Shown: piece after piece, positions 5,767 to 57,235 of the stretch
Layout: each line of letters opens with the position of its first letter
Numbering within the stretch: position 1 is the stretch's first letter
DNA from: Dehalococcoidia bacterium
GTDB taxonomy: Bacteria > Chloroflexota > Dehalococcoidia > Dehalococcoidales > JAUYDJ01
DNA length: 64,000 nucleotides
Direction of reading: 5' to 3'
NCBI GenBank assembly: GCA_020353235.1
Contig: CP070693.1
Coordinates: 836,844-900,843 of the forward strand
Notes under the pieces: model-generated
Told to the model about the DNA's origin: nothing
Seen by the model: only the letters and a program-made list of their open reading frames with translations
Databases searched by the model: none
Program-made: the position numbers and the translations under genes

Positions 5767-6072
5767 TTAGGTTAAGCCTGGGATTTTCAGACCGCCGGTT
5801 AGCTTGCCCAGACGCTGGGTGGTGAGTTTCTGTGACTTGGTGATGGCCTCACTTACCGCCTTGAAGACCAGCTCTTCCAGATTTTCGGCCTGGCTCGGGT
5901 CGATTACCTTGGGTGATATCTTTATTGATTTTAGTTTCTGGCGGCCGGTAATGGTAACCTTAACGGCACCCTTGCCTGACTGGGCTTCCAGAATGGTGCT
6001 ATCCAGTTCCTGTTGTGCCTTCTCCAACTTTGCCTTGAGTTGCCAGGCTTGGCTCAGCATAGATAGGTTCAT
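5767..6072 (-). CDS. ybaB: YbaB/EbfC family nucleoid-associated protein
   Basis: 101 aa with the pattern GKGAVKVTITGRQKLKSIKISPKVIDP...LEELVFKAV and a C-terminal GGLKIPG. It sits in the classic dnaX-ybaB-recR order. Confidence 0.85.
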   Translation of the reverse strand: MNLSMLSQAWQLKAKLEKAQQELDSTILEAQSGKGAVKVTITGRQKLKSIKISPKVIDPSQAENLEELVFKAVSEAITKSQKLTTQRLGKLTGGLKIPGLT

Positions 6073-7763
6073 TTTTCCTCCGTATCAACAATTTGGGCAC
6101 CCATATTTAAGGCTGCTTTAAGCAGGTGATTTGCCTCTGGCTCATAGACACAGCGTATATGACAGGGATGCCCTAGGAAGTGACCGAGAATTTTCTCGGC
6201 GGTTTGCTGGTTCTCTGGCTTCTCAATCTGCTCTTTATGATAGGCATACTTGAAGGATAAGACCACTGTGTCACCGTCGAGGCTTACTACTCTGATGCCA
6301 GCGCTTCTCAGGATGGCAATCGCCGGTGTTCTTCGGGTGTCTTCCGGGGCTTGCTCAATAATCTGCTTCCAGTTGGCGCTTATCCGCTCTATTTCACTAC
6401 TGGGTGGGGATGGTGGGGTGGTAACATCGGCTTTGGATTCAACTGGCTCGGCTTTAGCCGGTGGGGTGGTGACTTCTGCCTTGGCTTCTTCGCTAACGCC
6501 GGCTTCGGCTAGGGGGGTAGTAACCTCGGCTTTAGCTTCGACCGCTTCCGGTTTGGCGGCTCGTTTTTTTGGTTTAGCCTTGGCTTCTTCCGGCTGGGGT
6601 GGGGGGGGTGTAACCGTAGGCTCAGCGGCGGCTACCAGCGGGGGTAGTGCCTCTTCAACCTTGGGCGTCGGTAAGGTGGTGACCTCTTTTTCGGTCAGGA
6701 TGGAGTCAACCAGAGCCAGCTCCAGGGGTAGGGTGGAGTAGCTATTAAAACCAGACTCAAGCTCGCCAAAGAGCTTGACTGCGGTCAATATCTGGGGAAG
6801 GGAAGCTTTGGTGGCCAGGTCTTTTAATTCAGCTATCTCCTCGGTGGTGAAATCAAGTGCCTGGTCAGCACCGGTCTTTATTAGTAATACTCCCCGAAGG
6901 TATTCCATAAGCTCGCGGATGAATTGCCTTAAGTCCAGACCATCGCTATTGACGTCATTGATGGTAGCGATACCGGCCGAAACATCTTTATTGGCAATAT
7001 GCTTTATCACCTCTTTGGCCCGCCAGTCTCCGGTGATACCGAGAATCGCCTGCGCTTGATGAAGCCCGATTTCGGTGCCATAATAGGTGGTCAGTTGTTC
7101 CAGCAGGTTCTCGGCGTCGCGCAGGCTGCCCGTGGCGCTCTTGGCCACTAGGCGTAGCGCTTCCGGCTCGATTTTAATACCTTCCTTCTGGCAGATGCTG
7201 GTCAGTTTGGCGGTGATATCGGCCAGTGGTAGGCGGTGGAAATCAAAGCGCTGGCAGCGTGATTGGATGGTAGGCAGGACTTTGTGGGCTTCGGTAGTCG
7301 CCAGCACGAAGATGACAGTTGGGGGTGGTTCCTCAAGGGTCTTGAGCAGGGCATTAGAGGCGCTGGTGCTGAGCATATGGACTTCGTCGATAATATAGAC
7401 CTTATAGCGGGCCTGGTTGGGCGCATAATTAACCTTCTCGCGAAGATTGCGGATGTCGTCAACGCCGGTGTTGCTGGCGGCATCAATCTCAATGAAATCA
7501 ACTGCACTACCTTCGTTTATTGCCCGGCACATGGCGCAGGTATTACAGGGCTCACCCTGACCATTGGTAAGGCAGTTTACCGCTTTCGCCAAGATACGAC
7601 CGGTGCTGGTCTTGCCGGTGCCGCGTGGACCGCAGAAGAGATAGGCATGAGATACCCGGTTGCTGCTCAGGGCATTAAGCAATGTCTGGGTTATATGTTG
7701 CTGACCAACTACTTCGGCTAGGGTTTGAGGACGCCATTTGCGATAAAAGACCTGAGATGACAT
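6069..7763 (-). CDS. dnaX: DNA polymerase III subunit gamma/tau
   Basis: 564 aa with Walker A GPRGTGKTS, a zinc module CxxCxxC (CNTCAMC), DEVHML and a sensor region. A Pro/Ala/Glu-rich linker precedes the C-terminal tau domain. Confidence 0.95.
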   Translation of the reverse strand: MSSQVFYRKWRPQTLAEVVGQQHITQTLLNALSSNRVSHAYLFCGPRGTGKTSTGRILAKAVNCLTNGQGEPCNTCAMCRAINEGSAVDFIEIDAASNTGVDDIRNLREKVNYAPNQARYKVYIIDEVHMLSTSASNALLKTLEEPPPTVIFVLATTEAHKVLPTIQSRCQRFDFHRLPLADITAKLTSICQKEGIKIEPEALRLVAKSATGSLRDAENLLEQLTTYYGTEIGLHQAQAILGITGDWRAKEVIKHIANKDVSAGIATINDVNSDGLDLRQFIRELMEYLRGVLLIKTGADQALDFTTEEIAELKDLATKASLPQILTAVKLFGELESGFNSYSTLPLELALVDSILTEKEVTTLPTPKVEEALPPLVAAAEPTVTPPPPQPEEAKAKPKKRAAKPEAVEAKAEVTTPLAEAGVSEEAKAEVTTPPAKAEPVESKADVTTPPSPPSSEIERISANWKQIIEQAPEDTRRTPAIAILRSAGIRVVSLDGDTVVLSFKYAYHKEQIEKPENQQTAEKILGHFLGHPCHIRCVYEPEANHLLKAALNMGAQIVDTEEK

Positions 7764-7814
7764 CTCTTTTATTATACCTTATATTATCAAATTTCGGAAT
7801 AATTCCAACGGCAA

Positions 7815-7843
7815 TTGAAAAATTGTGAAACTAATCATACAAT
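7815..7843 (+). promoter_or_regulatory. Candidate sigma70-type promoter for the repeat-protein gene
   Basis: TTGAAA (7815-7820), a 17-nt spacer and TACAAT (7838-7843). An AGGGGAAGGG ribosome-binding site follows before the ATG at 7861. Confidence 0.4.
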
Positions 7844-7860
7844 AGGGGAAGGGTTTGGCG

Positions 7861-9567
7861 ATGGCAGATAAGGTTGAAAAATTAGACAAGGTATCTTCCC
7901 GGATTCTTGATGATATGGAAAGCGATACCGATGTTTTCGGCAAAGCGCTCGCCAGAGCTGAGGAACTCAGCCGGTTGGCTCGCGAGGCAGCCGAGGGCTC
8001 AATAAAAGTTTCCCAGGAGGCAATCCGCCGTGCTGAGATATTGAGCCAGGTAGCCAAAGAGACGGCGGAAGAGGCGAAACAGCTGTCGCTGGAAGCAGTG
8101 CGCCGGGCGGAAGAGGTAATCAAGAGCACCCGGGCGACCGCTGAGAAGGCGACCAAGGCTTCCCAGCAAGCGGTGCAGCAGGCTGAGGAAGCTATCCAAT
8201 CGACCAAGTGGGCTACCGAGGCGTTGACTAAAGCCTTTGCTGAAGCGGCGCATAAAGCTGAGGAAACTGCCCAGTCGACCAAGCAGATGGCTGAGGAGTC
8301 GATAAAAGTATCCCAGGAAGCGATCGCCCGGACTGAGGCAATCGACCAATCGGCTAAGCAGATGGCTGAGGAGTCACTCAATATATCTCAGGAGACGATG
8401 CAGCGGGCTGACGAAGTAAGCCAGATGGCGCGCAAGATTGCTAATGAAGCCAAACGGGCATCAATCGAGGCGACCACCAGAGCGGAGAAAGCAGGTCGGG
8501 CGGCTGAGGAAACCGCCAAGTCGACAGAGCGGCTCTTTGCCAAAGCAATGACCCGGGCTGAGGAAATAAGCCGGATTGCGGAGGAGACAGCCGAGAGCTC
8601 GGTCAGGGCATCAGAGGAAGTAGTCAGCCGGGCTGACGGGATAGTCCAATCACTCCGCCAGGCTACTGCTGAGGCCAAGAAAGCCTCTGAGGAAGCCCTC
8701 AATAAGGCTGATGAGGTAGGTAAGTCGGCTTGGCAGACTATTGAGGAAGCCAAAAAGGCGGCTGAGGAAACCATCAGCAAGACTGATGAGACCAGCAAGC
8801 TGGCGGAGCAGACCGTTGCCGAATCGAAGAGGGTATCGGAGGAAGCGGTAAGTCGGGCTGACGAGATTAGCAAGTCGGCGAAAGAAGCCGTGGAGACATC
8901 AGCCAAGGCGTCGCAGGCAGCTATAACTCAGGCTGAGGGAGCCAATAAACTGGCTAAAGCGGCGGCTAAAGAAGCTGCCAAGCTATCACAGGAGGCGGCT
9001 GCGGAATCAAAGAAGGTCGCTGAGGCGGCGGTAAGCCGCTCTGAGGAAGCCGGCCGGTTGGCTCAGGAAACTGCTGCCGAGGCAAAAAAGGCGTCCCAGG
9101 AAGCCATAACCAGGTCTGAGGCAGCCGGTAAATCGGCAAAAGAAGCCGCTGAGGCATCAGCCAAGGCGTCTCAGGAGGCGATGCTGCGGGCGGAGAAGGC
9201 CAGCAAGTCAGCCAAATCGGCGGCGGAAGCATCGGCTAAATCAGCCAAGGAAGCCGCCGAGCAGGCAATAGCTGCTGCCCGAGAAGCGGCCGCAGCCTCA
9301 ATCAAGGCATTTGAGCAGGCTATCGGCGGGCCAGAAGCGGTAAGCCGGCTGACCGCAGTTGCTCAGGAGGCAGCCGGCAGACCCCAGGAAGCCGCCCCGG
9401 GTAAGGCGGCCAAAGCCAAGGAAAAGAAAGAAGAAGCAACGAAGGTAGGCCGGGATATTGAGAGCCGTTTGGAGTTTTTAGCCAGAATGTTTGCCGAAAA
9501 TAAGACCAAACGAGCCAGAAAAAGGGAAAGTGAGGAAGAGAAAGAGACTGAAGAAGAGGAAGAGTAA
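7861..9567 (+). CDS. Long Ala/Glu/Lys/Ser-rich alpha-helical repeat protein (25-residue repeats), function unknown
   Basis: The track ORF starts at a TTG (7855). The ATG at 7861 with the upstream RBS is more likely. There is no signal peptide and no TM segment. The tail is RLEFLARMF followed by basic then poly-acidic residues. Confidence 0.8.
   Translation: MADKVEKLDKVSSRILDDMESDTDVFGKALARAEELSRLAREAAEGSIKVSQEAIRRAEILSQVAKETAEEAKQLSLEAVRRAEEVIKSTRATAEKATKASQQAVQQAEEAIQSTKWATEALTKAFAEAAHKAEETAQSTKQMAEESIKVSQEAIARTEAIDQSAKQMAEESLNISQETMQRADEVSQMARKIANEAKRASIEATTRAEKAGRAAEETAKSTERLFAKAMTRAEEISRIAEETAESSVRASEEVVSRADGIVQSLRQATAEAKKASEEALNKADEVGKSAWQTIEEAKKAAEETISKTDETSKLAEQTVAESKRVSEEAVSRADEISKSAKEAVETSAKASQAAITQAEGANKLAKAAAKEAAKLSQEAAAESKKVAEAAVSRSEEAGRLAQETAAEAKKASQEAITRSEAAGKSAKEAAEASAKASQEAMLRAEKASKSAKSAAEASAKSAKEAAEQAIAAAREAAAASIKAFEQAIGGPEAVSRLTAVAQEAAGRPQEAAPGKAAKAKEKKEEATKVGRDIESRLEFLARMFAENKTKRARKRESEEEKETEEEEE
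7942..9204 (+). repeat. In-frame 75-bp (25-codon) degenerate tandem periodicity inside the repeat-protein gene
   Basis: The landmark triplet (R/K/Q)-(A/T/S)-(E/D) recurs at track residues 34, 59, 84, 109, 134, 159, 184, 209, 234, 259, 284, 309, 334 and 359. It then recurs at 395, 420 and 445. Counted by hand. Confidence 0.85.
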
Positions 9568-9594
9568 CACTGAATTACGGCAATAGGTAATTAG

Positions 9595-9641
9595 GGCACA
9601 AGTACCTTGACTTTTCACGGGGCAAACCATATACTTGTGCC
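9595..9641 (+). promoter_or_regulatory. Candidate promoter bracketed by a perfect 10-bp inverted repeat
   Basis: TTGACT (9607-9612), a 17-nt spacer and TATACT (9630-9635). The inverted repeat is GGCACAAGTA (9595-9604) and TACTTGTGCC (9632-9641). The right arm overlaps the -10. Confidence 0.4.
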
Positions 9642-9682
9642 GAAAATTCGCAAGATTTCATATTAAAGGGGGGTATTTTCTT

Positions 9683-10165
9683 ATGGTAGACCCGAAAGAG
9701 CAAGCTCAGAAGGTGGAGAAGAAAACCGAGGAGCCAGTAGTGGAACCAGCGGCTGAGGTTCAAGGAGAGGCCCTGGCTGAGGCTCAGGAACAGGCCGTGG
9801 AACCCTTGGCTGAGGTTCTGAAAAGGGTAGAACATGCCTATGCTGCTTATGTTGATGCGGAGAAAGAGGTGGCTAGGGTCTACAAGTCAAATGAGCAGCA
9901 GGTGGAGAAAGCCTACAAAGAGGCTGAGCAGCAGGCCAATATCGCTTGTGAGCAGGGCGTGGAAAGAGCCGCCCGAAATCGCGAGCGGGCGGAACAGCTG
10001 GCTGAGGAAGCGTATCACCGAGCCCGGGAACAGGCTAAGAAGAATTATGAAGAAAGTGTCAAGCGGAGCCTGGAAGCCCGTAGGGAAGCTATAGAACAGG
10101 CTTGGGTGGTTCGCACCGAATCTGTAGAACGGTCCTGGAAATTCTACTCCAAAGAGAAAAGATAA
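9683..10165 (+). CDS. Charged alpha-helical protein with hendecad-spaced aromatic residues, function unknown
   Basis: The likely start is the ATG at 9683 (MVDPKEQ), preceded by AAAGGGGGG. The track start at 9635 adds an implausible leader. The composition is Glu/Ala/Lys/Arg-rich, with no TM segment. Confidence 0.7.
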   Translation: MVDPKEQAQKVEKKTEEPVVEPAAEVQGEALAEAQEQAVEPLAEVLKRVEHAYAAYVDAEKEVARVYKSNEQQVEKAYKEAEQQANIACEQGVERAARNRERAEQLAEEAYHRAREQAKKNYEESVKRSLEARREAIEQAWVVRTESVERSWKFYSKEKR

Positions 10166-10193
10166 AGAGGCAAGCTAGCTAATCTCGGGTAAG

Positions 10194-11369
10194 TTACAGT
10201 AGCGAGGGTATATCGCGGAAGGCGTCCTCGATTCCTCGGTGTTCGTACTCTATCCCTTCCCATCTCGTCTTATAGGAGGAGATATACCTAATAGCTCTGG
10301 TAAAGTACTCCATGACCTTACCGACGTTAGTAAGTTCAGATAGTATCAAAGTGACTTCTATGGCCCGTTTTTCCCGGGGATAATCACCACTCCTGATTAT
10401 GGCTTCTGTGGCCACACGTTTGAGGCAACCTCCGATTTCATTAAGCAGTGACATGTTCAGTTCATCGGGTGGTGCGGAGAGGAGATACAGAGCTCGCTTG
10501 GCATCTGAGGGACGGCACTTAAGCGACAGGTCACTTATGGCATCACTCATTGCCTGAACCCCCCGGCGGCTTTCAACCGGCTGCTTCCTGAAATCCGAGG
10601 TTCCACCAAAGGCAAGCTTGAGCATTGGTATCTGAGTCCTACCATGGCCAATTACCGTCCACCCCGACAGGGTCTGAATTATGTCTCCGGCGTCGATAAT
10701 CTTAGCACCGATGTATTTCGGCTTCTTCTCTTCACCGGCGCAGAGCAGGTTATAAAAGGGGCTGACCAACCGGGCATTAATCTTGGCCAGGTTATGCTGA
10801 AGCGAGGCATCTTTGGTAATATACCGCTGGTTGTCAATCAGAAAGACGGCATCAGCCACCAGGTAAGCCGATTTGAGGCAGGTGGCGGTGTTGTATATCG
10901 TTCTCTCCTCCACCTTCTCTTCATGCCTGAAGGGAAGGACAATAACGTTGTATATCGGCTTTTCTGGGTAGCGCTCTTTGAGGTTTTGGGTCAGTATCGA
11001 TATTGCTCCCGAACCGGTACCGCCGGCGGCGCTGGCAATGACTACGAAGGCATCGGTCTCGTGGAATCGCTTGGTGTTTTTAACCGCTTCGGAGACCTTA
11101 TCGCCATCTTCCCGGGCTATCTCAGCACCTAGTTCGTTTATTTTGCCGACACCGTGACCACCTGTCTTTTGAGCGCCGATAAGCACTCGATGTGCTTGGT
11201 CTGGCCTGATGAAGGATAGTCCGCTTAAATCAGCAATATCGGTGTTGACGGCAATAATGTTGCTGATTATATCAATGCCACGCTGACCGCGTGCTCTTCC
11301 GTTGAGACGAGCAAACTCATCGGCAATCCGACCACCACACTGTCCGCAACCAATAACTAGTAGCTTCAC
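10194..11369 (-). CDS. Tubulin/FtsZ-superfamily GTPase, CetZ/tubulin-like (paralog A)
   Basis: 391 aa with a GTG start. Motifs are MKLLVIGCGQCGGRIAD (T1 loop), GHGVGKINELGAEIARED, SAAGGTGSG (tubulin signature), FLIDNQRY, a T7-like IIDAGDIIQTL, SGDYPRE and LILSELTNV, ending in DIPSLL. Confidence 0.85.
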   Translation of the reverse strand: MKLLVIGCGQCGGRIADEFARLNGRARGQRGIDIISNIIAVNTDIADLSGLSFIRPDQAHRVLIGAQKTGGHGVGKINELGAEIAREDGDKVSEAVKNTKRFHETDAFVVIASAAGGTGSGAISILTQNLKERYPEKPIYNVIVLPFRHEEKVEERTIYNTATCLKSAYLVADAVFLIDNQRYITKDASLQHNLAKINARLVSPFYNLLCAGEEKKPKYIGAKIIDAGDIIQTLSGWTVIGHGRTQIPMLKLAFGGTSDFRKQPVESRRGVQAMSDAISDLSLKCRPSDAKRALYLLSAPPDELNMSLLNEIGGCLKRVATEAIIRSGDYPREKRAIEVTLILSELTNVGKVMEYFTRAIRYISSYKTRWEGIEYEHRGIEDAFRDIPSLL

Positions 11370-11402
11370 TTTTTACCTTGATACTAAAAACCAACTTTTT
11401 CC

Positions 11403-12578
11403 TTATAGCAATGTCGGGATGTCTTTGCCAACTTCTTCCAGGGTTCTAAGCCTGCCCGCGGTCTCTTCTTCTCTCCGTTTGAACTCGGGGATGAGAGTGG
11501 TTGATTTACTATAGTACTCCCTGACCTTCTCCACGTTGCTCAATCCAGACAGGATCAGGGTAACCTCGACATGGGTTCTCTCCCGTGGGTAGTCACCATT
11601 CCTGATGGTAGCTTCTGGAGCAATACCTCTCAGATAGTCGCCAAGTTCTTTAACCAGGTCCATATTCATTTCTTTATGCGGTGCCGCCAGGAGGTATAGT
11701 GCCCGGCTGGCATCCGAGCAATCGCAGGTAATGGAAAGCTCACTCATCGCTTCATCCATTGCCTGTATTCCCTTATGGATTTCGGTGCTCTTGGTCCTGA
11801 AGTCAGACTTGCGGGGCAGAGGTAGATTAAACAAGGGCACATCTGATTGACCGTGACCGATGGTGGTCCAACCGGTCAGTGTCTGATTGATATCGCCGGC
11901 ATCGACGGTTTTGGCACCAATGTATTTGGTTTTCTTCTCCTCACCGGCGCAGAGCAGGTCATAGAACGGCTCCACAATCATTTCATTAATCTTGGTGAGG
12001 TTATTTCTGAGGGAGAAGTCCTTTCTGATATACCGCTGGTTGTCAATCAGAAAGACGGCATCAGCCACCTGATTGACTGATTTAATGCAGAGCGCCGAGT
12101 TATAAATAGCTCTTTCTTCGGTTGACTCTTCATGCTCAAAGGGCAAGATAACCATGGCATATAGTGGTTTATCTACATAGCGTTCTTTGATGAATTTGGT
12201 TAAGACTGGCAGCGCCCCTGAGCCGGTGCCACCGCCCGAAGAGGCAATCAGTAAGAAGGCGTCTGATTCATAGAACCGCTTGGCTCCTCGGATGGCATCA
12301 ATAACTTTATCGCTATCATCTCTGGCTATCTCAGCGCCCAGCTCGTTTATTTTACCGACGCCATGGCCACCGGTCTTTCTGGTTCCAATCAGGATTCTAT
12401 GCCGGTAATCAGATTTTATGTTGGACAGCCCGCTCAGGTCAGCCGCATCGGTGTTTACGGCGAAGACACCGGGGGTTATTTCAATGCGGCGTTGGCTACG
12501 TGCCCTTTTATTTATCCGGGCGAATTGGTCGGCAATCCTGCCGCCACACTGTCCGAACCCAATCACCACTAATTTCAT
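11403..12578 (-). CDS. Tubulin/FtsZ-superfamily GTPase, CetZ/tubulin-like (paralog B)
   Basis: 391 aa, preceded by a strong RBS (GAGGTGGG). It is colinear with paralog A without gaps and matches at 70 of the first 100 residues by hand count. Motifs are GQCGG, SSGGGTGSG, FLIDNQRY, TVDAGDINQTL and NGDYPRE, ending in DIPTLL. Confidence 0.85.
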   Translation of the reverse strand: MKLVVIGFGQCGGRIADQFARINKRARSQRRIEITPGVFAVNTDAADLSGLSNIKSDYRHRILIGTRKTGGHGVGKINELGAEIARDDSDKVIDAIRGAKRFYESDAFLLIASSGGGTGSGALPVLTKFIKERYVDKPLYAMVILPFEHEESTEERAIYNSALCIKSVNQVADAVFLIDNQRYIRKDFSLRNNLTKINEMIVEPFYDLLCAGEEKKTKYIGAKTVDAGDINQTLTGWTTIGHGQSDVPLFNLPLPRKSDFRTKSTEIHKGIQAMDEAMSELSITCDCSDASRALYLLAAPHKEMNMDLVKELGDYLRGIAPEATIRNGDYPRERTHVEVTLILSGLSNVEKVREYYSKSTTLIPEFKRREEETAGRLRTLEEVGKDIPTLL

Positions 12579-12607
12579 TTCCCACCTCAGTCTTAAATAT
12601 TTTACCT

Positions 12608-12637
12608 ATTTTACTCACACAAAGGTACTGATGTCAA
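12608..12637 (-). promoter_or_regulatory. Candidate promoter for the tubulin-like gene pair
   Basis: On the minus strand: TTGACA (12637-12632), an 18-nt spacer and TAAAAT (12613-12608). It lies in the 91-nt gap downstream of gap. Confidence 0.45.
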
Positions 12638-12669
12638 TAGCCGATAAGTAACGGGGGTGTAGTCACTAT

Positions 12670-15503
<2,834 letters not shown>

Positions 15504-25416: not shown

Positions 25417-25488
25417 GCCAGCGTAGCTCAGGGGTGGAGCAGCGGTTTCGTAAACCGCCGGTCGTCGGTTCGAATCCGACCGCTGGCT
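25417..25488 (+). tRNA. tRNA-Thr (anticodon CGT)
   Basis: The hand-folded cloverleaf has acceptor GCCAGCG/CGCTGGC, D stem GCTC/GAGC, anticodon stem GCGGT/ACCGC with loop TTCGTAA, T stem GTCGG/CCGAC with TTCGAAT, and discriminator T. CCA is not encoded. Confidence 0.9.
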
Positions 25489-52055: not shown

Positions 52056-52127
<72 letters not shown>

Positions 52128-57100: not shown

Positions 57101-57120
57101 CGGCATAATAAATGCACTGC

Positions 57121-57222
57121 CAGCTCTCCTTTCCAAACACGGGAGGCAATGCCGTTTCCAGTATTACCCTTTCGGCCAATCTCCATAGCGTTGCCTTCAG
57201 GAGAATTGGCTCGGAGAGGTAT
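57121..57222 (-). promoter_or_regulatory. Molybdenum/tungsten cofactor (Moco RNA motif) riboswitch aptamer
   Basis: The minus-strand RNA is CCUCUCCGAGCCAAUUCUCC...GGAGAUUGGCCGAAAGGGUAAUACUGGAAACGGCAUUGCCUCCCGUGUUUGGAAAGGAGAG. It has the conserved UCCGAGCC, GGCC, GCCUCCC and GGAAAGGAG blocks. P1 is closed by CUCUCC/GGAGAG. Confidence 0.75.
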
Positions 57223-57235
57223 TTAATTTAAACCC

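Follow-up and report, generated by a model that had tools for sequence, protein, structure and literature searches.

A candidate cytoskeletal module of a CetZ-like GTPase and two coiled-coil proteins in Dehalococcoidales

Do two helical-repeat proteins and two tubulin-like GTPases whose genes lie side by side belong to one cytoskeletal system, or is their adjacency an accident of gene order? The question is raised by a 64,000-nucleotide stretch of DNA from the metagenome-assembled genome (MAG) of a Dehalococcoidia bacterium (contig CP070693.1; here called the window), in which four genes, termed CC1, CC2, TubB and TubA, are situated between the housekeeping genes dnaX and gap (Table 1). A preliminary description had read these genes as a self-contained module, in which a 25-residue repeat protein (CC1) and a hendecad protein (CC2), each with a near-consensus promoter, converge on two tubulin-like genes (TubB and TubA) that have a promoter of their own. 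A check of open reading frames (ORFs) and motifs confirmed the four ORFs, three promoter-like sites and the gap of 28 bp at which the genes meet tail to tail, all at the positions given, and NCBIfam identified the housekeeping flanks. We consider it reasonably probable that CC1, CC2 and TubB are a conserved cytoskeletal module of Dehalococcoidales that was added to an older, stand-alone CetZ-like protein, TubA, and that its likeliest role is in cell shape or envelope organization.

TubA and TubB are CetZ-like GTPases

Both GTPases match the Pfam families Tubulin (3.3e-34 for TubB, 1.8e-36 for TubA) and CetZ_C (3.8e-15 and 2.9e-17, respectively): PF00091 (Tubulin/FtsZ GTPase) scores 119.3 and 126.7 bits in the two proteins against a cut-off of 33, and PF21011 (CetZ-type C-terminal domain), with near-complete coverage of the model, 56.2 and 63.1 bits (cut-off 21.6). 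The best PDB relative of TubA is Haloferax CetZ1 (4b46; E = 8.7e-48, with residues 1-380 aligned), followed by CetZ2 (4b45; 1.3e-30), with the best FtsZ at about 1e-10 and the best tubulin at about 1e-6, and neither protein reaches the canonical FtsZ equivalog TIGR00065 (53.3 and 73.7 bits vs 295.2). Because both carry the Tubulin and CetZ_C domains, have CetZ1 and CetZ2 as their closest relatives of solved structure and fail the FtsZ equivalog, TubA and TubB are CetZ-like GTPases in a bacterium, which bears out the earlier label "tubulin-like" and narrows it. The nucleotide-binding signature (GGGTGSG in TubA, AGGTGSG in TubB) fits [SAG]GGTG[SA]G, and GGTGSG as well as the acidic T7-loop residues D226 and D229 are invariant in the orthologue alignment.

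TubA is 100% identical to an NCBI protein named "cell division protein FtsZ [Dehalococcoidia bacterium]", while a look-up of contigs by exact sequence returned nothing for TubB and a single 1.7-kb contig for TubA. Bacterial relatives have been described as paraphyletic "CetZ-like" proteins, and those of Dehalococcoidia have been mentioned in passing (PMC9871819). The two GTPases share with CetZ1 and CetZ2 of Haloferax volcanii the Tubulin plus CetZ_C architecture, the GGTGSG signature, the acidic T7 residues and a wall-less, S-layered host lineage (PMC10608941), but differ in that their host belongs to the bacterial Dehalococcoidales and in that both end in the peptide DIP(S/T)LL. A further difference is the genetic link of TubB with two coiled-coil genes of its own; archaeal CetZ genes reportedly lack a conserved genomic context (PMC9871819).

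TubA and TubB are 61% identical. In a neighbor-joining tree, TubB forms a single clade inside the TubA radiation, with a branching order that parallels the one of TubA in the genomes concerned, and its lower mean pairwise identity (74% vs 79% for TubA) indicates that it evolves somewhat faster. Residues at which the two classes differ consistently (317, 327, 356 and 372) are confined to the C-terminal domain and tail. Two MAGs have a third CetZ-like paralogue, a divergent one with 47% identity and the tail ELPTLD, inserted between gap and TubA (L049:8764-9939 and L062:8761-9933). As judged by dN/dS ratios of 0.06-0.31, all four genes of the window locus are under purifying selection.

CC1, CC2 and TubB are inherited together

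The locus was followed through two scans: one anchored on the tubulin genes, which sampled one genome per GTDB species, returned more than 533 relatives and had the window's proteins mapped onto the best 80 loci; and one anchored on a CC2 profile, which covered metagenomes and yielded 80 loci. Almost all of the best 80 tubulin-anchored loci are labelled as Dehalococcoidales, Dehalococcoidia or Chloroflexota MAGs, the exceptions being two labelled Deltaproteobacteria, and not as the archaea (euryarchaea) that the definition of CetZ calls for.

Four arrangements were found. In 21 complete loci TubA stands by itself (gap>TubA>dnaX), all of them without CC1, CC2 and TubB, and 21 complete and about 8 truncated loci have the order gap>TubB> <CC2 <CC1 TubA>dnaX. 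The order of the window (gap>TubA>TubB> <CC2 <CC1 dnaX) is seen in 3 loci, and in L075 the block CC1>CC2> <TubB lies 1.6 kb downstream of TubA. Wherever TubB had enough flanking sequence, it was accompanied by CC2 and CC1 in one geometry (33 of 33 genome loci). When CC2 served as the anchor, a convergent tubulin gene was present within 400 bp in 51 of the 61 loci that have at least 500 bp of downstream sequence, and CC1 was upstream in 46 of the 51 loci with enough upstream sequence; the convergent gap is short as a rule (about 19-87 bp, median 68). The order and orientation CC1>CC2> <TubB are thus kept through three gap/dnaX arrangements and about eight unrelated contexts, the latter comprising loci in which the block sits among unrelated neighbors with no TubA, gap or dnaX nearby (L108, L109, L115, L119, L122, L127, L138, L140 and L147).

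Judging from this distribution, CC1, CC2 and TubB are gained or lost, and moved, as one unit; TubA is the ancestral, widespread copy that is also found alone. The comparison of genomes, which the preliminary description had named as the check on its proposal, therefore returned strongly conserved linkage, but of a three-gene unit: the linkage joins CC1, CC2 and TubB and does not extend to TubA, which is found between gap and dnaX whether the other three are there or not. That the module is self-contained has also become doubtful, given the FtsZ-type C-terminal peptides of the GTPases, the presence of FtsA and FtsZ in relatives, and a tubulin-free CC2-like paralogue near secreted proteins.

A literature search found no paper describing a CC1-CC2-TubB module. 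In Dehalococcoides mccartyi, FtsA and FtsZ are DET0342/0343, and two more genes, DET0589 and DET0636, are annotated as "FtsZ" (PMC5102406, PMC4340931); the hypothetical genes DET0586-0588 beside DET0589, which may or may not be orthologues of CC1/CC2, are expressed together and respond to solvent toxicity by induction (PMC5102406, PMC4340931). Pure cultures of strain BTF08 were rich in the "FtsZ/tubulin GTPase" btf_0551 and in the hypothetical protein btf_0548 encoded nearby (again at most a possible orthologue of CC1/CC2), and both were low in co-cultures that showed a disc-to-barrel change of the cells (PMC8163811). This proteomic correlation in D. mccartyi is the sole evidence, and an indirect one, that bears on a role in controlling cell shape.

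The coiled-coil proteins and their expression signals

CC1 is all-helical and has no transmembrane segment; its AF2 model consists of helices 2-245 and 253-487 (pLDDT 67). Most of the protein is an array of a 25-residue repeat with the consensus S-x-E-A-[IV]-x-R-A-E-E-x-S-x-x-A-x-E-x-A-E-x-x-x-K-x, and the identity of 42% at lag 25, together with a hydrophobic period of 3.57 (25/7), establishes that the 25-mer seen earlier is real. In a set of 34 sequences (33 complete orthologues and the window copy), lag 25 is strongest in 33, and the number of repeats must vary between orthologues because their lengths span 556-911 aa. Both ends are conserved: an N-terminal motif, FEKAVARAExLSRAAR, and a C-terminal amphipathic helix in which [KR]-[IM]-E-x-R-L-x-[FS]-L-[AS]-[RK]-M-[YF] is present in 34 of 34 (as a near-variant in P0121). 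The dN/dS of CC1 is 0.18-0.20. Three antisense ORFs inside CC1 were rejected as genes and regarded as by-products of a repetitive, purine-rich coding strand (AT skew +0.36 and GC skew +0.19 across 8001-10000).

The 25-mer of CC1 also occurs in sensor histidine kinases (P0122-P0125), where it makes up the spacer of some 330 residues that separates PAS from HisKA. In histidine kinases this segment is a parallel two-stranded coiled coil that is continuous with the dimerization helix. Since the 25-mer of the kinase spacer has to be a parallel dimer, CC1 is most simply inferred to be a dimeric rod of parallel helices as well, about 70 nm in length.

CC2 has an acidic, disordered N-terminus, in which a 24-bp tandem repeat (2.1 copies) is found at the DNA level, followed by a single helix (residues 27-159, pLDDT above 95 in AF2), again with no transmembrane segment. 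The helix comprises 11 hendecads in the window copy and 12 in most orthologues; there is no break in the register, and a/d/e/h-type positions are taken by Ala, by Tyr or Trp, and by Ile or Val. Its best lag of 11 and hydrophobic period of 3.66 likewise uphold the hendecad reading, and orthologues are separated by an indel of exactly 11 residues (dN/dS 0.10-0.31). That CC1 and CC2 are coiled-coil rods is supported by their periodicities (25/7 and 11/3), by the conservation of their termini and by the one-hendecad indel.

The CC2 family numbers 192 representatives among 1.84 billion proteins, nearly all of which are stand-alone proteins of 100-230 aa; in P0247 (P0225 is flagged alongside) a CC2-like domain is fused to DUF4062 and PAS. 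A CC2-like paralogue ending in WKIFQGEGK occurs directly upstream of a 950-1182-aa signal-peptide protein (L133:5923-8287, L141:343-4391, L152:199-3796, L143 and L155); none of these loci has a tubulin gene or CC1 in the vicinity. For the large protein, Pfam gives either nothing or Big_5 alone, and the pairing may connect the paralogue with the cell surface or S-layer. Two apparent fusions were set aside: P0126, a 1-kb Logan contig in which tubulin residues 1-115 are in frame with the C-terminal part of CC2, and a hybrid ORF with Fer2, RACo_linker and CetZ_C that ends in DIPLLL (L113:2015-2830, minus strand), both of which, given short contigs and a truncated GTPase domain, are probably assembly chimeras or remnants.

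Neither protein could be assigned to a family of the libraries searched. Pfam and NCBIfam returned nothing for CC1 at E <= 0.1; for CC2, Pfam returned nothing and NCBIfam just two unrelated matches far below threshold. The defence (PADLOC) and phage (PHROG) libraries gave no meaningful match for either. A PDB search returned no relative except designed helical bundles. Word-indexed searches with CC1 and CC2 produced five matches each and no self-match, owing to low complexity, and orthologues were instead drawn from the retrieved loci.

The three promoters reported earlier are all among the four top-scoring sites of a promoter scan of 7600-12800; with 7 promoter-like sites in the region against 3.5 +/- 2.1 in shuffled sequence, their number is in itself weak evidence. 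The hexamers of the CC2 promoter are unchanged in 16 of 33 orthologous CC1-CC2 spacers, over deep divergence, and are missing from a clade with spacers of just 57-77 bp, in which CC1 and CC2 are probably co-transcribed. This promoter is flanked by a perfect 10-nt inverted repeat, which might act as an operator or form an RNA hairpin between the two genes. TubA and TubB, being 33 bp apart with a ribosome-binding site as the only element between them, are probably co-transcribed from the promoter upstream of TubA. The start codons assigned to CC1 and CC2 are preceded by good Shine-Dalgarno sequences (AGGGGAAGGG and AAGGGGGG, respectively), and that of CC2 agrees with the N-termini of its orthologues (MVDPKEQ).

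The 28-bp gap between stop codons was reproduced, and so was its lack of a terminator: a site scan of the zone detected no terminator-like hairpin, and the region 10120-10240 folds no better than shuffled sequence on either strand (z = +0.38 and -0.17), so that a terminator or conserved RNA structure at this site was rejected. Antisense RNA from convergent read-through would be possible. Beyond the flanking genes, ybaB and recR lie on the dnaX side of the locus and eno and a TIGR00725-family gene on the gap side (NCBIfam). Rfam has no match within the locus; a riboswitch and two tRNA genes lie elsewhere in the window.

Table 1. Features of the locus and of the window (positions in the window; aa, amino acids)
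Feature	Position	Strand	Remarks
CC1	ORF 7855-9567; likely ATG 7861, giving 7861..9567	+	568 aa
25-residue repeat array	7936..9285	+	about 18 in-register copies, residues 26 to about 475
CC1 C-terminal amphipathic helix	9451..9501	+	RDIESRLEFLARMFAEN; after variable Lys-rich linker, before acidic tail
Antisense ORFs inside CC1	7779-8381, 8388-8906, 8966-9232	-	rejected as genes
CC2	ORF 9635-10165; likely ATG 9683, giving 9683..10165	+	160 aa
Tandem repeat in CC2	9751-9800		24 bp, 2.1 copies
TubB	10194..11369	-	391 aa; CetZ-like GTPase; paralogue linked to CC1/CC2
TubB C-terminal peptide	10197..10214	-	DIPSLL; P388, L390 and L391 invariant in alignment
TubA	11403..12578	-	391 aa; CetZ-like GTPase; copy between gap and dnaX
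TubA C-terminal peptide	11406..11423	-	DIPTLL
Convergence zone	10166..10193		28 bp stop-to-stop, tail-to-tail
Promoter-like site, CC1	7815..7843	+	TTGAAA-17-TACAAT; 10/12 match
Promoter, CC2	9607-9635 (element 9595..9641)	+	TTGACT-17-TATACT; 10/12 match
Inverted repeat around CC2 promoter	9595-9604 / 9632-9641		GGCACAAGTA / TACTTGTGCC; perfect, 10 nt
Promoter-like site, TubA-TubB	12637-12608	-	TTGACA-18-TAAAAT; 11/12 match
Fourth promoter-like site	7757-7785	+	ATGACA-17-TATATT; 10/12
dnaX	6069-7763	-	flank; NCBIfam
gap	12670-13683	-	flank; NCBIfam
tRNA gene	25417-25488	+	elsewhere in window
tRNA gene	52056-52127	-	elsewhere in window
Molybdenum-cofactor riboswitch	57110-57228	-	78.9 bits; elsewhere in window

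Cell shape, division and the alternatives

Gene linkage and protein architecture nominate CC1 and CC2 as a candidate scaffold or adaptor pair for TubB. We propose that TubA and TubB, which have kept the acidic T7-loop residues and the signature for nucleotide binding, would form GTP-dependent filaments, each of which would probably dock onto an adaptor through its terminal DIP(S/T)LL. CC1 would then probably act as the 70-nm parallel dimeric rod, with its conserved C-terminal helix tethered, and CC2 as a hendecad coiled coil about 18-20 nm long, the two serving as TubB-specific accessories that bundle, space, anchor or regulate the filaments. Such accessories have parallels in Zap, EzrA and SepF for FtsZ and in BtubC for BtubAB. 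Shape or envelope organization is likelier than primary division because the host lineage has no peptidoglycan, has an S-layer and keeps a separate canonical FtsA-FtsZ pair; in haloarchaea, CetZ1 has a role in cell shape. More tentatively, and with odds that we would place well short of even, TubB with CC1/CC2 (and TubA) might be an undescribed tubulin cytoskeleton that shapes the flattened, S-layered cells of the wall-less Dehalococcoidales, in which the repeat number of CC1, differing from species to species (556-911 aa, or roughly 65-120 nm), would set filament-filament or filament-membrane spacing and CC2 would couple the rod to the C-terminal region of TubB.

Known systems resemble this one in part. 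FtsZ and its partners (ZapA/ZapB, EzrA, SepF and FtsA) likewise pair a GTPase that has a short C-terminal docking peptide with small and large helical accessories, but the TIGR00065 scores given above are far from those of FtsZ, the locus lies outside the dcw/ftsA neighborhood, CC1 and CC2 fit no partner family, and FtsA-FtsZ are separate in relatives. BtubA/BtubB and BtubC of Prosthecobacter also combine two bacterial tubulin paralogues with a dedicated non-enzymatic helical-repeat accessory; those, however, are eukaryote-type tubulins (the match to 2btq_B is just E = 2.3e-6), BtubC belongs to the TPR proteins, while CC1 and CC2, in which Pfam finds neither TPR nor any other family, are coiled coils of 25/7 and 11/3 periodicity, and pairing of the tubulins is not obligate here, as TubA occurs alone. 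Crescentin, FilP/Scy and Ccrp are long non-enzymatic rods implicated in shape, but they bear no sequence relationship to CC1 and CC2, which are non-heptad and gene-linked to a tubulin. A further comparison with long, rod-like, non-enzymatic proteins is provided by those shape factors of haloarchaea that act with CetZ1.

Several points weigh against a cytoskeletal module with a role in shape. Each scan was limited to the best 80 of several hundred matches, the loci are not phylogenetically independent, and adjacency as such is weak evidence because the housekeeping flanks are equally syntenic, so that the argument from linkage rests on covariation in presence and absence and on relocation of the block. 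No convergent tubulin gene accompanies CC2 in 10 of the 61 evaluable CC2-anchored loci: five of these contain the CC2-like paralogue beside secreted proteins (L133, L141, L143, L152 and L155), three are interrupted by a methylase, transposase or integrase (L111, L136 and L148), one has a tubulin that adjoins CC2 but is co-directional (L142), and one has no tubulin in about 0.9 kb downstream (L130), a near-identical CC2 in L131 lying directly after a co-directional tubulin. Three loci (L029, L066 and L072) lack the block at this site although their TubA is close to that of module-bearing genomes, which suggests recent loss or relocation; in L066 and L072, trp genes stand upstream of TubA instead. 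The AF2 model of CC1 is of low confidence (pLDDT 67, pTM 0.30), and its oligomeric state, like physical contact of TubB with CC1/CC2, polymerization and the cellular role, is inferred. The role in shape is an analogy to what is generally known of archaeal CetZ1, and a CetZ-like paralogue directly after ftsA-ftsZ in one genome (L055) points to division.

Division provides the main competing explanation, which we regard as unlikely but well worth weighing: TubA and TubB would compete or co-operate with FtsZ for FtsA where the cell divides, and CC1 and CC2 would be Zap- or EzrA-like organizers of the ring, in the service of cytokinesis in a wall-less cell and not of shape. The motif [DN]-[IVL]-P-[ST]-L-[LFI] is the end, or within one residue of the end, of nearly all TubA and TubB orthologues, and it resembles the tails of the canonical FtsZ of relatives (LDVPSFLRKP and LSIPAFMRQRR), whose genes adjoin ftsA, but is without the aromatic and basic residues of D/E-[IV]-P-x-[FY]-[LM]-[RK]; the resemblance suggests that CetZ-like filaments may dock onto an adaptor via DIP(S/T)LL, with FtsA as one candidate and CC1/CC2 as others. 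Neither ftsA nor ftsZ is found in the window, the canonical pair being present at other loci of relatives, and Dehalococcoidales keep mraZ-mraW-ftsA-ftsZ while the rest of the dcw cluster and peptidoglycan are gone (PMC10608941). A MAG that also has gap-TubA-dnaX (ARS1330; L061) contains a second CetZ-like gene (391 aa, ending in NIPTLL) directly after mraZ-rsmH-ftsA-ftsZ and before nrdR (L055:5811-11986), and in another locus a CetZ-like gene is 2 kb from ftsZ-ftsA (L070:549-6170). Papers on D. mccartyi, too, count these tubulin/FtsZ genes among the division proteins (PMC5102406, PMC8163811). However, the paralogue adjacent to ftsA-ftsZ in L055 groups with TubA instead of TubB and stands without adjoining CC genes; canonical FtsZ is retained, which leaves no obvious need for a second division tubulin; and Pfam and NCBIfam scans of CC1 and CC2 gave no match to a Zap, EzrA, SepF or ZipA family. 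In 2015, Duggin et al. reportedly found that archaeal CetZ1 is not a division protein.

An explanation that dispenses with binding to TubB fares worse, and we think it improbable: CC1 and CC2 might be stress-protective or membrane-coating amphipathic helices of the LEA-3, apolipoprotein or PspA-like kind, whose adjacency to TubB is regulatory or historical. The 11- and 25-residue periodicities with Ala-rich faces would suit such helices, as would the solvent induction of DET0586-0588 beside DET0589 (PMC4340931, PMC5102406) and the position of the CC2-like paralogue next to surface-protein genes. Yet DET0587/0588 are at most possible orthologues of CC1/CC2, Pfam and NCBIfam scans of both proteins gave no LEA or PspA family match, the 25-mer serves as a dimeric coiled-coil spacer in kinases, the C-terminal helix of CC1 is followed by an acidic tail, and strict co-inheritance with a fixed TubB geometry in about eight contexts is hard to explain without a shared function.

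That the linkage merely reflects inherited synteny of four unrelated functions in small, stable genomes is very improbable: the orders recR-ybaB-dnaX and gap-eno are equally conserved around the locus, but CC1, CC2 and TubB are present or absent together and relocate together, with their convergent geometry kept while the flanks change. Least credible is a TubZRC- or PhuZ-like DNA-segregation system, as might be suspected from the proximity of tubulin-superfamily genes to the replication genes dnaX and recR and from weak PHROG matches to PhuZ (E = 0.0028), and a TubZ-TubR-tubC system was rejected, given that Tubulin_2 (PF13809) scores 24.6 and 17.2 bits, below its threshold of 27, that Pfam and NCBIfam reveal no DNA-binding or helix-turn-helix partner and the spacers no iteron array, and that the locus is chromosomal in every relative with no phage or defence family matched.

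To our knowledge, CetZ is the only branch of the tubulin superfamily known for control of cell shape in prokaryotes and has been studied only in haloarchaea, for whose CetZ proteins we know of no dedicated, gene-linked partners. If a cytoskeletal module of CC1, CC2 and TubB is the correct reading, an archaeal-type tubulin system for shape, with dedicated partners of its own, would exist in bacteria. With this locus, CetZ gains a bacterial counterpart in the organohalide-respiring Dehalococcoidales, a wall-less lineage of environmental importance, and gene linkage already supplies two candidate partner proteins, CC1 and CC2, whose clean, long 25/7 and 11/3 periodicities make them attractive structural models. 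Three small genes thereby bring within experimental reach the questions of how CetZ-type filaments are attached to the membrane and organized, and of how a disc-shaped cell maintains its form without peptidoglycan or MreB.

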